DNA of 64,000 nt, from assembly GCA_021819085.1 (NCBI GenBank), contig JAKASJ010000011.1:13604-77603 (forward strand), in the 5' to 3' direction. A program made the position numbers and the translations under genes. Shown in pieces: positions 33,501 to 37,376 of the stretch (position 1 is the first letter of the stretch; every line of letters begins with the position of its first letter). Source of the stretch: Pseudomonadota bacterium (GTDB taxonomy: Bacteria; Pseudomonadota; Gammaproteobacteria; Acidiferrobacterales; UBA6901). Under the pieces are notes generated by a model, which saw only the letters and a program-made list of their open reading frames with translations, was not told the DNA's origin and ran no database searches.

Positions 33501-33668
33501 CGGACCGGAAGGGGTGTGCCGGAAGCGGAAACGCTGCCGAAATAAACGGAATGCCGCGGATGTATGCGCGACCGGTCTGCGACCAGCTGCCCGCATGCTC
33601 TAGGTACCACGATAAACAGCTTGGCTTCTGTCATTGGCGGCGCATTATAGCGTGCCGCGCACAAAGCG

Positions 33669-34286
33669 TCAGCCGGATAAATCGCGCGCGAGTGCTGCGC
33701 GCACCTCGTCCGGCAGCTTCTCGACGGAATGGGAGTAGGCGGGATGTTCGATGCCCATGGCTAGTGCCGCACCGGATTTCACGGCCTGCACCATGGCGGG
33801 ATCGAGCTCGAAGCGCAGAAAATGAACGGATGAGGTCTTTTCCGATGTGGCACGTTCCAGATCCTCGTCGGCGATCGCCCAGACACGATCAAATCCCGCC
33901 ACGCGCACCCAGACCCTGCGTTCGACGCCGATCATGCTTGCCAGCGCCGCCTGGCGCTCGTCTTCTCGCGCGTACTCGATCATGAAGGTGGCTTTCCAGT
34001 TGCGGCCGTCCGGAATTAGCGGATTATAGGTTGCAATCTCTTCCTCGATGCCCTGTGCCTCGAAAATCCGCTCGGCACGCAACATCTCCTGCACCTGGTA
34101 ACGCATCGTGAGCGCGTCCTCGAAGTAAAGGGTCGCGTGCGGTCCGATCGGGACCCTGCGATTGAGTTTGTGCGCCATCACGGTGGCGCGAAAGTCGTTG
34201 CGCACCCGGTCGTACTGCTCCAAGGACAACAGACCCTCGCGGGTGAGTTTCTGCGTAGCAATGGTATCGGCGTCAGTCACGGGCAC
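33669..34286 (-). CDS. DUF3501-like protein of unknown function
   Basis: 205 aa, soluble, GTG start 3 nt after the stop of the upstream EncFtn-like gene. The DUF3501 assignment is from memory of that family's size and its association with rubrerythrin / CCG Fe-S genes, and was not verified by search. Confidence 0.6.
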   Translation of the reverse strand: MPVTDADTIATQKLTREGLLSLEQYDRVRNDFRATVMAHKLNRRVPIGPHATLYFEDALTMRYQVQEMLRAERIFEAQGIEEEIATYNPLIPDGRNWKATFMIEYAREDERQAALASMIGVERRVWVRVAGFDRVWAIADEDLERATSEKTSSVHFLRFELDPAMVQAVKSGAALAMGIEHPAYSHSVEKLPDEVRAALARDLSG

Positions 34287-34289
34287 ACC

Positions 34290-34589
34290 CTACGACTTGT
34301 GCTTCCCTTCCAGGGCAACGATAGGCTTGTCGGTGAACACATAATCGCGCAGCTCCTTGTCAAAAGCCGGATCGTGACGACGGATCCACTCCAGGATCAT
34401 GGCCGCATGCTCCTTTTCCTCGTCACGATTGTGCGCGAGGATCGCGCGCAACTCCTTGTCCTTGCACGCGTCAACGCGCTGATTGTACCAATCAGCTGCT
34501 TCCAGTTCCTCCATCAGGGAAATGATCGCGCGATGCATGTCGCGCGTTTCCTCGCGCAACTCGGTTTCGTGATAGCCCTCGCTTGCCAT
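34290..34589 (-). CDS. EncFtn-type (encapsulated-ferritin-like) mini-ferritin without a cargo-loading tail
   Basis: 99 aa. HRAIISLMEELEAADWYNQRVDACKDKELRAILAHNRDEEKEHAAMILEWIRRHD closely matches my recollection of the Rhodospirillum rubrum EncFtn core, including the ExxE/W and EEKEH metal-site residues. It ends ...FTDKPIVALEGKHKS with no Gly/Ser linker and no LxIGSLK-type targeting peptide. Confidence 0.75.
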   Translation of the reverse strand: MASEGYHETELREETRDMHRAIISLMEELEAADWYNQRVDACKDKELRAILAHNRDEEKEHAAMILEWIRRHDPAFDKELRDYVFTDKPIVALEGKHKS

Positions 34590-34666
34590 ATCATCTCCTC
34601 AGCTATTGAAGCCAATAGTTCACGCCGGTCATGCGGGCTGGCTGCTGCCTCGGACAAATGCCGCGC

Positions 34667-36013
34667 TCAGATCCCGTATGCTGCGCGCAGCAGAGACAGC
34701 GGGTGCTCCGGCGCCTTTCCGGTGGCGAGACCGTTTTCGATCTGATGCCCCGCCATGGGGCAATCGCTACTGAAGTGATCCGCCGCCGCCTGCCGCACGC
34801 GCTCGACCACCGGTCCTGCGATCTTCATCGAGCTTTCGTGGAACTCGCTCTTGACCGCATAGGTTCCATCGTGTCCGGAACAGCGCTCGATCGCATCGAC
34901 CTGCGTCTGCGGCACCAGCTGCAGCAGATCGCGCGTCTTCATGCCGATGTTCTGCACCCGCAGATGACAGGCGACATGGTAGGAGATCCTGCCGAGCGGC
35001 TGCTTGAAATCGGTACGCAGCTTGCCGTCCTTGTGACGCAGCATCAGGTACTCGAAGGGATCGAAAATGGCAGCGCGCACCTTGGCGACGTCCGGATCCT
35101 CGGGAAACATCAGCGGCAGTTCCTGCTTAAACATCAACACACAGGAAGGCACCGGTGCGACGATGTCCCAGCCTTCGTCCACCAGGCGTGCCAATAGCGG
35201 AATATTGACCTCTTTGGCACGTTCCACTGCACCCAGATCACCGAGTTCAAGCTTCGGCATCCCGCAGCAGCGCTCCTTCTCGGCAACGGTGACCGGGATG
35301 CCGTTATGGCGAAACACCGCGACAAGATCATCATTCAGCCGTGGCTCATTGTAATTGCCGTAGCAGGTGGCGAACAGCGCCACGCGCCCGCGTGTGGCGG
35401 TAGTGGGCTCGGCCTGTGCCGCTACGGCGCTGTCATCGTGCCACCGCCTGAGGAAAGTATCGCTGTGATACGCCGGTACGGGAGCACGGGGATGGACATG
35501 CAGAGTCTTGTCGAGCACCTTGCGGAACAGACCGTTTCGATTCGCGGCGTTGACGAACTGCACGACCACGGGGATGCCTGCCAGACGTCCGACCGTATCG
35601 GTGCTTGTCAGGATGCGATCCCGCACTCGGGTATCACCCTTGCGGAACTTTACCGCCTTGGCGCGCAGCATCAGGTGCGGAAAGTCCAGGTTCCAGGGAT
35701 GCGGCGGCACGTAGGGGCACTTGGTCATGTAGCACATGTCGCACAGATAGCAGTGGTCCGCAATCTGCCAGAACACGGACTTCGGGACACTATCGAGTTC
35801 CATCGTCTCGGAGGCATCGATGGCGTCAAACAGCGTCGGGAATGCCTGACACAGACTGAAGCAGCGGCGGCAACCATGGCAGATGTCGAAGACCCGCTCC
35901 ATCTCCTTGATCAGGGCGCCTTCGTCGTAGAACTGGGGATTCTTCCAATCCAGCGGATGGCGTACCGGGGCTTCAAGATTCCCTTCGCGGCCACCCTGAG
36001 TGGTTACAGCCAT
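34667..36013 (-). CDS. (Fe-S)-binding oxidoreductase with HdrD/GlpC-like architecture (2x[4Fe-4S] + two CCG-type domains)
   Basis: 448 aa. Ferredoxin motifs CHGCRRCFSLC and CYLCDMCYMTKCP. Cys-rich CCG-type segments ATCYGNY...ERCCGMP and PSCVLM...CSGHDG...DCPMAG. Confidence 0.85.
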   Translation of the reverse strand: MAVTTQGGREGNLEAPVRHPLDWKNPQFYDEGALIKEMERVFDICHGCRRCFSLCQAFPTLFDAIDASETMELDSVPKSVFWQIADHCYLCDMCYMTKCPYVPPHPWNLDFPHLMLRAKAVKFRKGDTRVRDRILTSTDTVGRLAGIPVVVQFVNAANRNGLFRKVLDKTLHVHPRAPVPAYHSDTFLRRWHDDSAVAAQAEPTTATRGRVALFATCYGNYNEPRLNDDLVAVFRHNGIPVTVAEKERCCGMPKLELGDLGAVERAKEVNIPLLARLVDEGWDIVAPVPSCVLMFKQELPLMFPEDPDVAKVRAAIFDPFEYLMLRHKDGKLRTDFKQPLGRISYHVACHLRVQNIGMKTRDLLQLVPQTQVDAIERCSGHDGTYAVKSEFHESSMKIAGPVVERVRQAAADHFSSDCPMAGHQIENGLATGKAPEHPLSLLRAAYGI

Positions 36014-36141: not shown

Positions 36142-36564
36142 TTACTTGCCGAGACTGTCCAGAGCTTTCTGAAAACGGTTGGCATGAGAGCGCTCGGCTT
36201 TGGCGAGGGTCTCGAACCAGTCCGCAATCTCGGTAAAGCCTTCCTCGCGTGCGGTTTTGGCCATGCCGGGATACATGTCGGTGTACTCATGGGTCTCGCC
36301 AGCGATGGCCGATTTCAGATTGTCGCCGGTGCTTCCGATCGGCAGGCCGGTGGCCGGATCACCCACAGCCTCCATGTACTCGAGATGCCCGTGCGCATGG
36401 CCGGTTTCCCCTTCGGCGGTGGAGCGGAATACGGCGGAGACATCGTTGAATCCTTCGACGTCTGCCTTGGAGGCGAAATACAGGTAGCGGCGGTTGGCTT
36501 GGGATTCGCCGGCGAAGGCGTACTTCAGATTCTCGTGGGTCTTGCTGCCCTTCAGACTTTTCAT
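36142..36564 (-). CDS. Rubrerythrin-family diiron protein lacking the rubredoxin domain
   Basis: 140 aa. Diiron ligand motifs [40 protein letters not shown]. The whole protein contains no cysteine. Confidence 0.88.
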
Positions 36565-36593: not shown

Positions 36594-36630
36594 AAATAAG
36601 CGAATATGCTTATTTAGAATAAGTCTAAAT
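36594..36630. promoter_or_regulatory. Two adjacent AT-rich inverted repeats 30-66 nt upstream of the rubrerythrin start (operator candidates)
   Basis: AAATAAGC-gaatat-GCTTATTT (36594-36615, 8+6+8 perfect) and ATTTAGA-ataag-TCTAAAT (36612-36630, 7+5+7 perfect). The half-site AATAAG recurs three times. A TTGACA hexamer (minus strand, 36651-36646) lies just upstream. Confidence 0.45.
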
Positions 36631-37376
36631 CTATCCCACCAACCCTGTCAACGATCATACTAGGGTTGAAACACCTGACGAACCATGATCTCAGTCAAAT
36701 CCTGGTGACGAGCAACCGCCCGGGGGCCAAACGGAAGCTCAACCCCTGGACCGGACCGCAATCATTGCGGTATCCGCGGCAGCGCGGACCCGCCGCACTG
36801 CCGGGATTCTGCGCTGGGGAAACGCCGGTTCGTGCGATCGGGCGTGCGCGGCCATCCGGGCGAGACGCCCTCGCCGGGTGGCCGTTTGGCAATGACGGCC
36901 TGACGCCGGTCCCGGAGTTGCGGAACCCCGATGATGGATCCGACCGCGGTTCGGTGGCTGACGGGTTCATCGGGTCGATCAGGTTCCACATGCTGCGGCT
37001 TGTCCGCGGCTTTCTATCACAATCCTGAGCACGATCTGCCCGCGATCACCGCAGGAAGGCCAGACTCGCGCCGCCACGCACCGCCAGTGCGTTCCCGTTC
37101 GGCCGGGTATGGTATTTCCGCATTCCGGAACCGGACTGGATCGCCGGGCCGCCGAACCGACACAGGTAGAATAAATGCCGGCGGACGGCACCTGCTCCGG
37201 CCGCAGACCGCATATGATGATATTGCTGTCCAATCCGGAAACCGGCCCCAGACAACCTGCCGTGATGCACGAAATGAAATAAAGGATTGGCGAACCGGAT
37301 TATCTCATCTAATATTGATTAAAAGACATCGATATCTCGCCCCGACAACATCTTTTCAATTATTGATCAAAGGGAT

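Follow-up and report, generated by a model that had tools for sequence, protein, structure and literature searches.

A ferritin-like gene of the EncFtn family lies on the minus strand of the DNA analyzed here, a stretch of 64,000 nucleotides (hereafter the window) from contig JAKASJ010000011.1 of a gammaproteobacterial genome (assembly GCA_021819085.1). The gene is the third of four co-directional genes that make up a rubrerythrin operon. On the strength of its sequence, we propose that its product is probably a free, decameric di-iron ferroxidase that aids peroxide and iron defense within this operon. EncFtn biology has been framed around the encapsulin shell, with the ring oxidizing iron and the encapsulin storing it, and the conserved shell-less branch of the family, which includes the window protein, poses the question of what a lone ring does.

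The window EncFtn protein and its metal sites

The gene and its ribosome-binding site are as follows.

34290..34589, minus strand: shell-less EncFtn-family gene (s-FLP / Non-EncFtn class), 99 amino acids, ATG start
34595..34600, minus strand: Shine-Dalgarno sequence GAGGAG, 5 nt 5' of the EncFtn ATG, by direct reading of the sequence

A preliminary description of this DNA, made without database searches, had recognized an EncFtn core in the protein, and profile searches bear this out. The open reading frame (ORF) is a true member of the EncFtn family, matching Pfam PF22277 (EncFtn-like) over profile positions 6-85 of 85 with 138.5 bits (E 6e-41; cut-off 27 bits). It also passes NCBIfam TIGR04535, 'encapsulin-associated ferritin-like protein', with 127 bits, barely above the cut-off of 125; this alignment spans profile positions 6-94 of 114 and leaves the C-terminal tail of the profile unmatched. 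The nearest solved relative is PDB 3K6C (E 1e-44, identity 74/91 or 81%), and identity to the core of Rhodospirillum rubrum EncFtn is 66%. An AlphaFold2 model (25 homologues in the alignment, pLDDT 82) consists of two long antiparallel helices (residues 13-41 and 45-72), a short C-terminal helix (74-85) and a low-confidence tail. The top 50 Foldseek matches to this model are all EncFtn structures, with 3K6C first (TM 0.74-0.80). The window gene is the only EncFtn-like gene that profile searches found in its own genome, an assembly of 3.42 Mb in 78 contigs that is 99.98% complete. By homology to 3K6C, we predict with high confidence that the protein forms an annular decamer.

The metal sites of the family are fully preserved. 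Ferroxidase centres of EncFtn proteins draw their Glu/Glu/His and Tyr ligands symmetrically from two chains. In R. rubrum EncFtn, the ferroxidase centre is formed by Glu32, Glu62, His65 and Tyr39 (He 2016, PMC5012862), the entry site by Glu31 and Glu34, and the outer site by His57, Glu61 and Glu64 (PMC5012862). Mapped onto the window protein with an alignment offset of 4, the ferroxidase-centre residues are all retained as E28, E58, H61 and Y35, as are the entry site (E27/E30) and the outer site (H53/E57/E60). These nine positions are invariant in 69/69 shell-less and 18/18 shell-linked homologues from the survey described below. We therefore predict from these residues that the window protein is likely to have ferroxidase activity. 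The window protein also has a tryptophan, W34, at a position where NE0167, the protein of the 3K6C structure, has Leu.

The C-terminus is where the protein departs from encapsulin cargo. Helix 3 of the model is followed by 14 residues, TDKPIVALEGKHKS, which agrees within one with the 15 residues counted in the preliminary description. The tail, FTDKPIVALEGKHKS, is a 15-residue variant without a targeting peptide, and comparison with 17 tailed, shell-adjacent homologues confirmed the earlier observation that the protein has no Gly/Ser linker and no cargo-loading (targeting) peptide. That observation had been coupled to the absence of a shell gene nearby, which also held: none of the gene's neighbors, which encode DUF3501, a GlpC-like CCG-domain Fe-S protein (RFO, see below) and rubrerythrin, is an HK97-fold protein. 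A whole-genome search, proposed in the same description as a check, extended this result, as the genome contains no match at E<=1 to PF04454 (Linocin_M18, the family-1 shells), PF19307 (SrpI-like) or PF05065 (Phage_capsid, the HK97 major capsid proteins). We take PF19307 to represent the family-2 encapsulin shells, and PF05065 presumably includes the family-3 shells. Because the protein has no loading peptide and its genome has no shell gene, we conclude that it works free in the cytoplasm; its shell-independence is well supported.

Proteins of this kind have been described before, contrary to the novelty implied by the preliminary description. The window protein is about 95-100 amino acids long, has a short tail, and lacks both a targeting peptide and an encapsulin, and it belongs to a recognized, structurally solved and very common class, of which it is itself an ordinary member. 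This class was named 'Non-EncFtn' by He 2016 (PMC5012862), who solved their own structure by molecular replacement with 3K6C, and 's-FLP' in a 2024 review (PMC11202242), according to which its members form decamers. The type structure of the class, 3K6C (NE0167 from Nitrosomonas europaea), was solved in 2009 and is unpublished and apo (PMC11202242); its entry contains 10 chains, which the review describes as a decamer. NE0167 has 95 amino acids rather than 99 and shares the fold, the metal ligands and the lack of a targeting peptide with the window protein. Its tail ends in ...NKPIAHE, whereas the window protein has the 15-residue FTDKPIVALEGKHKS variant; this LExxHK form also differs from the s-FLP consensus LFTD(E/N)KPIAHE given in the review, which leaves open whether that short tail is a targeting signal (PMC11202242). 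Unlike NE0167, the window copy is embedded in a rubrerythrin operon. R. rubrum EncFtn (Rru_A0973, PDB 5DA5) has the same two-helix fold and identical ferroxidase, entry and outer sites, but carries a disordered linker of ~40 residues and the targeting peptide SLGIGSLK, neither of which is present in the window protein. It is also encoded beside its shell and needs that shell for iron storage, whereas the window genome has none.

Shell-linked and shell-less copies across the class

We surveyed 300 species-representative genomes of the same taxonomic class by profile searches with PF22277, PF12007 and PF04454, and extracted 87 EncFtn loci for closer analysis. An EncFtn-like gene was present in 82 of the 300 genomes and a shell gene in 18 of those 82, leaving 64/82 EncFtn-bearing genomes without a Linocin-type shell. 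The shell-less state is thus the majority state for EncFtn in this class. The two kinds of copy differ sharply at the C-terminus. An EncFtn gene lies directly upstream of every shell gene, and 17/19 of these shell-adjacent copies end in a Gly/Ser/Ala/Glu-rich linker of 19-45 residues followed by a terminal, xTVGSLK-like targeting peptide (LGIGSLK, LTVGSLK, FTIGSLK, STIGPLK, FTVGDLK or similar). The remaining two are fusions to the shell. In contrast, the targeting-peptide motif occurs in 0/69 shell-less copies, which end in FTDKPIAHE/K/D/G (9 residues from Phe) or, like the window protein, in FTDKPIxxLExxHKx (15 residues). In six genomes, a tailed copy next to a shell coexists with a tail-less one at another locus. 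On the EncFtn tree the shell/no-shell label was clustered, requiring 3 changes, and none of 500 shuffles gave a number as low. A shell was found within 6 kb of EncFtn in 0/80 named close relatives from GTDB genomes.

These results bear on the idea that the window protein is an encapsulin cargo after all, its short tail acting as an unrecognized signal for a shell that is itself unrecognized or encoded elsewhere. A tail of 8-10 residues could physically reach a shell, according to the review (PMC11202242), and these tails have a conserved sequence, KPIxxLExxHKx or KPIAHE. However, a family-1, SrpI-like or Phage_capsid HK97 gene is absent from the genome, most EncFtn-bearing genomes of the class have no Linocin-type shell, the copy next to a shell always has a canonical peptide even where a tail-less paralogue coexists with it, and the named relatives have no shell within +/-6 kb. 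We consider cargo status very improbable. More broadly, the survey argues, at the level of genomes, against the encapsulation of s-FLPs, a possibility kept by the 2024 review: encapsulation is disfavored because most carrier genomes are shell-free and because the docking peptide is found only on the shell-adjacent paralogue.

Two further differences separate the classes of copy. Mean pairwise identity is 77.8% among shell-less copies and 61.7% among shell-linked copies. In addition, 64/69 shell-less copies, compared to 2/15 shell-linked copies, have a His among their final residues (AHE, AHK, HKS) or else a tail rich in His (HHGHG, DHEHGERD and GGHEHQHD are examples among loci L003-L089). Judged by homology, this conserved C-terminal His sits on the outer rim of the EncFtn ring, and it may be a metal or partner site.

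The public name of these proteins does not reflect this split. The shell-less homologues P0005, P0031, P0042 and P0065 are annotated as 'encapsulin-associated ferritin-like protein', a name that is misleading for the shell-less branch and that arises because such proteins pass TIGR04535, the window protein by 2 bits.

We also considered whether shell-less EncFtn is a general substitute for classical ferritins, and rejected this: PF00210 (E<=1e-15) was matched in 49/70 genomes with a shell-less copy and in 164/230 others (odds ratio 0.94, p 0.88). In the window's own genome, a PF00210 search at E<=0.01 found no clear Ftn, Bfr or Dps. The only match besides rubrerythrin was an ORF at G000:C16:77561-77950 (L090:1465-1917), which is weakly Bfr-like (TIGR00754, cut-off 125.6 bits, score 54.5 bits). 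Judged by eye, the ORF directly before it resembles a BMC-domain protein of the carboxysome shell type and the one after it a ParA/McdA protein, and these flanking ORFs suggest a carboxysome locus. Separately, the two fusions of EncFtn to a shell, at L062 (G114:C6) and L089 (G274:C197), join EncFtn and Linocin-type domains in one open frame of 432 and 492 amino acids, respectively, counted stop to stop; according to the 2024 review (PMC11202242), this architecture occurs mainly in archaea, e.g. Pyrococcus.

The rubrerythrin operon and its putative operator

The genes around EncFtn and the control elements at either end of the unit are listed below.

36622..36651, minus strand: sigma-70-like promoter TTGACA-18-TAGACT, upstream of rubrerythrin
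36613..36629, no strand assigned: ICE-like (Irr-type) operator TTTAGAC-TTA-TTCTAAA, overlapping the -10 hexamer
36142..36564, minus strand: aerobic-type rubrerythrin (RBR), 140 amino acids, without a rubredoxin domain (PF02915, 106.6 bits)
34667..36013, minus strand: RFO, a rubrerythrin-associated GlpC-like CCG-domain Fe-S oxidoreductase, 448 amino acids (PF02754 CCG)
33669..34286, minus strand: DUF3501 gene, 205 amino acids (PF12007, 245.6 bits; PDB 3FJV, E 3e-58)
33553..33572, minus strand: terminator-like hairpin ~100 nt 3' of DUF3501, from a consensus scan only

The membership of EncFtn in a rubrerythrin/Fe-S operon, claimed in the preliminary description, is upheld by this arrangement of co-directional genes with matches to PF02915, PF02754 and PF12007. 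A rubredoxin-less RBR, a CCG-domain RFO and DUF3501 run in one direction from 36564 to 33669 in the usual order of the aerobic-type rubrerythrin system, so that all three components of that system are present; EncFtn is inserted to give rubrerythrin - RFO - EncFtn - DUF3501. The GTG start of DUF3501 lies 3 nt past the EncFtn stop codon. The name RFO is taken from PMC5114695 (Cardenas 2016), and the window RFO scores below the cut-offs of the GlpC models. Published descriptions of the rubrerythrin system name no EncFtn, and figure 3 of the Cardenas paper has only 'HYP'; in the literature that we searched, where the matches were confined to descriptions of the s-FLP class and of the three-gene system, EncFtn is nowhere named as a component. 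In the window, and in ~16% of the DUF3501-bearing genomes surveyed, an EncFtn-like gene separates RFO from DUF3501.

The insertion is recurrent. In the survey, EncFtn lies beside DUF3501 in 19/70 shell-less copies (27%), and the exact order RBR-RFO-EncFtn-DUF3501 occurs in 15 genomes (the window's own included), every one from a different family, with near-zero spacing between EncFtn and DUF3501. The four-gene arrangement is shared by the nearest named relatives (L093 and L094, with 94% and 86% identity). Genome-wide, DUF3501 is present in 53/70 genomes with a shell-less EncFtn and in 69/230 others (odds ratio 7.3, Fisher p 1e-11, with kinship ignored). The longer xLExxHKx tail is commoner among operon-embedded copies (10/18 vs 5/51, p 2e-4). 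EncFtn is nevertheless an optional, labile extra in the rubrerythrin operon, not a constant component.

A single promoter, overlapping the ICE-like operator, appears to drive the whole four-gene unit, as a consensus scan found no other promoter-like site 5' of the four genes on the same strand; the hairpin at 33553..33572 is a possible 3' end of the unit. The operator matches 13/14 positions of the ICE consensus TTTAGAA-N3-TTCTAAA (Rodionov 2006, PMC1698941). When we searched for TTTAGA-N5-TCTAAA with one mismatch allowed, the RBR operator was the sole site in the 3.42 Mb genome. In 1.68 Mb of extracted loci there were 19 ICE-like sites, 17 of which precede a rubrerythrin start by 30-86 nt. 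These sites have the form TTTAGA(A/C)-N3-(T/G)TCTAAA and cover 15/26 RBR-containing gammaproteobacterial loci (the window, L013, L014, L020, L022, L032, L040, L049, L067, L068, L093, L094, L102, L116 and L154). None was found upstream of shell-linked EncFtn (0/19).

A candidate regulator of the ICE site is encoded in the same genome. Three Fur-family proteins were found there, and one of them (G000:C69:161748-162029; L174:1375-1878, plus strand) is Irr-like: its best NCBIfam matches are IrrA (123.8 bits) and Irr (116 bits), below the NCBIfam cut-offs (123.8 vs 150), and its translation contains an HHH motif and lacks CxxC pairs. In alpha-proteobacteria, Irr acts at low iron and its predicted targets are mostly iron-storage and iron-using genes; three species have 'minimal Irr regulons' that comprise either a rubrerythrin-like gene or one for a di-haem cytochrome c peroxidase (PMC1698941). 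For Pelagibacter, R. rubrum and Magnetospirillum, the minimal regulon has a rubrerythrin gene as its sole target, as is the case for the ICE site of the window. By analogy, the putative ICE probably means that the operon is repressed when iron is scarce and expressed when iron is replete. Rodionov 2006 reported Irr and ICE only in alpha-proteobacteria (PMC1698941; for the regulon, Rudolph 2006 is also cited), whereas the window and the related loci belong to Gammaproteobacteria.

Two inverted repeats accompany these elements. A perfect palindrome, AATAAGC-N6-GCTTATT, occupies 36595-36614 of the window, 3' of the -10 hexamer and 5' of the rubrerythrin start; it follows the ICE site directly and shares the last 2 nt of that site. 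A hairpin, CTATTG-gctt-CAATAG (34604-34619, minus strand), lies in the 77-nt spacer between RFO and EncFtn, just 5' of the EncFtn Shine-Dalgarno sequence.

Proposed role in peroxide and iron defense

The preliminary description had argued that an EncFtn wired into such an operon without a shell would have a different role, either as a pure ferroxidase or in delivering iron to di-iron or Fe-S partners, and such a role is plausible. In our proposal, two subunits of two helices each would together build a four-helix di-iron ferroxidase centre, and such pairs would assemble into a free cytosolic decameric ring with five di-iron centres. The ring would oxidize labile Fe(II) with O2 or H2O2 but would be unable to store the product, and rubrerythrin, given electrons by RFO, would reduce peroxide alongside it. 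The removal of Fe(II) and of H2O2 would together limit Fenton chemistry when iron is replete. The ring might also give iron to, or accept it from, di-iron and Fe-S partners. That EncFtn is truly coupled in function to the rubrerythrin system, beyond mere adjacency, we regard as an even bet.

Several observations weigh against this proposal. EncFtn adjoins DUF3501 in only 19-20 of 122 DUF3501-bearing genomes (~16%), and in most genomes the rubrerythrin system is a module of three genes. Conversely, 51/70 shell-less copies are found at loci apart from the rubrerythrin cluster, and 17 genomes with a shell-less EncFtn have no DUF3501 at all. The 51 stand-alone copies have no conserved neighbors apart from overlapping-frame noise (the best, an ABC ATPase, occurs in 6/51 loci), and an ICE was found upstream of 0/119 stand-alone EncFtn genes. 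Nor was a separate clade of operon-embedded copies supported: their 18 tips need 17 changes of the label, which is no better than in shuffles. For a protein of 99 residues the tree is mostly unresolved, and it allows no claim of either one origin or repeated insertion. Finally, characterized EncFtn rings oxidize iron and cannot store it without a shell (PMC5012862), so the proposed role does not account for the fate of the Fe(III). Since the operon link holds for only about one quarter of shell-less copies, the operon alone cannot define the function of the class.

The same observations could indicate a stand-alone housekeeping protein for iron handling, encoded by a mobile gene whose position in the operon is incidental. 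Such a gene would settle near iron or oxidative-stress genes with no direct partner among them. Most shell-less copies look monocistronic, 68/80 named close relatives do not adjoin the cluster, orphan and operon-embedded copies interleave on the tree, and orphan copies have a strong Shine-Dalgarno sequence of their own and no ICE. Three results count against this account: the insertion point RFO | EncFtn | DUF3501 recurs across many families, DUF3501 co-occurs with shell-less EncFtn genome-wide, and the xLExxHKx tail is enriched in operon-embedded copies. We think an incidental position improbable. An operator common to the stand-alone copies was also sought and rejected, as only Shine-Dalgarno k-mers were recurrent, and Fur boxes showed no enrichment over shuffles upstream of these copies.

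A different possibility is that EncFtn is a second di-iron redox enzyme, or a subunit, of the rubrerythrin system rather than a ferroxidase that detoxifies iron. RFO would then re-reduce the EncFtn dimer, possibly with DUF3501 serving as an adaptor, and the dimer would turn over as a peroxidase or O2 reductase while retaining its iron. Such a dimer is a four-helix di-iron bundle, like rubrerythrin, and its gene is placed exactly between those of RFO and DUF3501, with almost no spacing to the latter. The invariance of the metal sites in the absence of any storage shell is consistent with catalysis of this kind, the higher identity among shell-less copies than among cargo copies would be expected if extra partner surfaces were constrained, and the outer-rim His is largely confined to shell-less copies. 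Yet the majority of shell-less copies show no linkage to RFO and DUF3501, some of their genomes have no DUF3501, catalytic peroxidase action has been reported for no EncFtn, and the entry and exit sites for iron transit are retained as well. On balance we find a second redox enzyme, and equally the cycle sketched for it, unlikely.

Returning to the free ferroxidase ring, the placement between RFO and DUF3501, the higher conservation and the conserved C-terminal His hint at a closer partnership, in which the shell-less ring would serve the rubrerythrin machinery as a dedicated partner under iron control and the operon copies would reveal the role of the whole s-FLP class. As one possibility, DUF3501 would dock on the His-bearing outer rim, and the ring would be re-reduced by RFO or exchange iron with the di-iron and Fe-S partners. 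The s-FLP would then be a cytosolic di-iron enzyme of peroxide and iron defense that never needed a shell, a view of the class that we consider unlikely. We rate the dedicated partnership itself as doubtful because most copies are unlinked and not under ICE control. If it were true, it would provide a role for a class that is found in hundreds of species and has so far had none.

What the analysis adds to the existing descriptions of the class is a quantitative case against encapsulation, a recurrent position as the fourth gene of the rubrerythrin system, and putative control of the ICE/Irr type outside alpha-proteobacteria. The recurrent placement of EncFtn between RFO and DUF3501 under a putative iron-responsive operator offers a concrete context in which to consider the functions of both s-FLP and DUF3501. 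The DUF3501 fold gave no functional hint, as its AlphaFold2 model (pLDDT 86.9) matches only 3FJV, a 'novel protein of unknown function'. We also considered a read-through fusion of EncFtn and DUF3501, which share a frame with one stop codon between them, and rejected it, as this is seen in about one third of cases, as expected by chance.

Other arrangements of these genes were found in the survey. In G283, DUF3501 and RFO are fused and EncFtn does not adjoin the cluster; the fusion has been described for Nitrosomonas in the Cardenas paper (PMC5114695). At L084 (G077:C6:23584-33832), four genes follow one another on one strand, encoding RBR, DUF3501, an EncFtn that bears the canonical targeting peptide ELTVGSLIK, and an encapsulin shell, and the rubrerythrin module can thus also adjoin a true encapsulin system.

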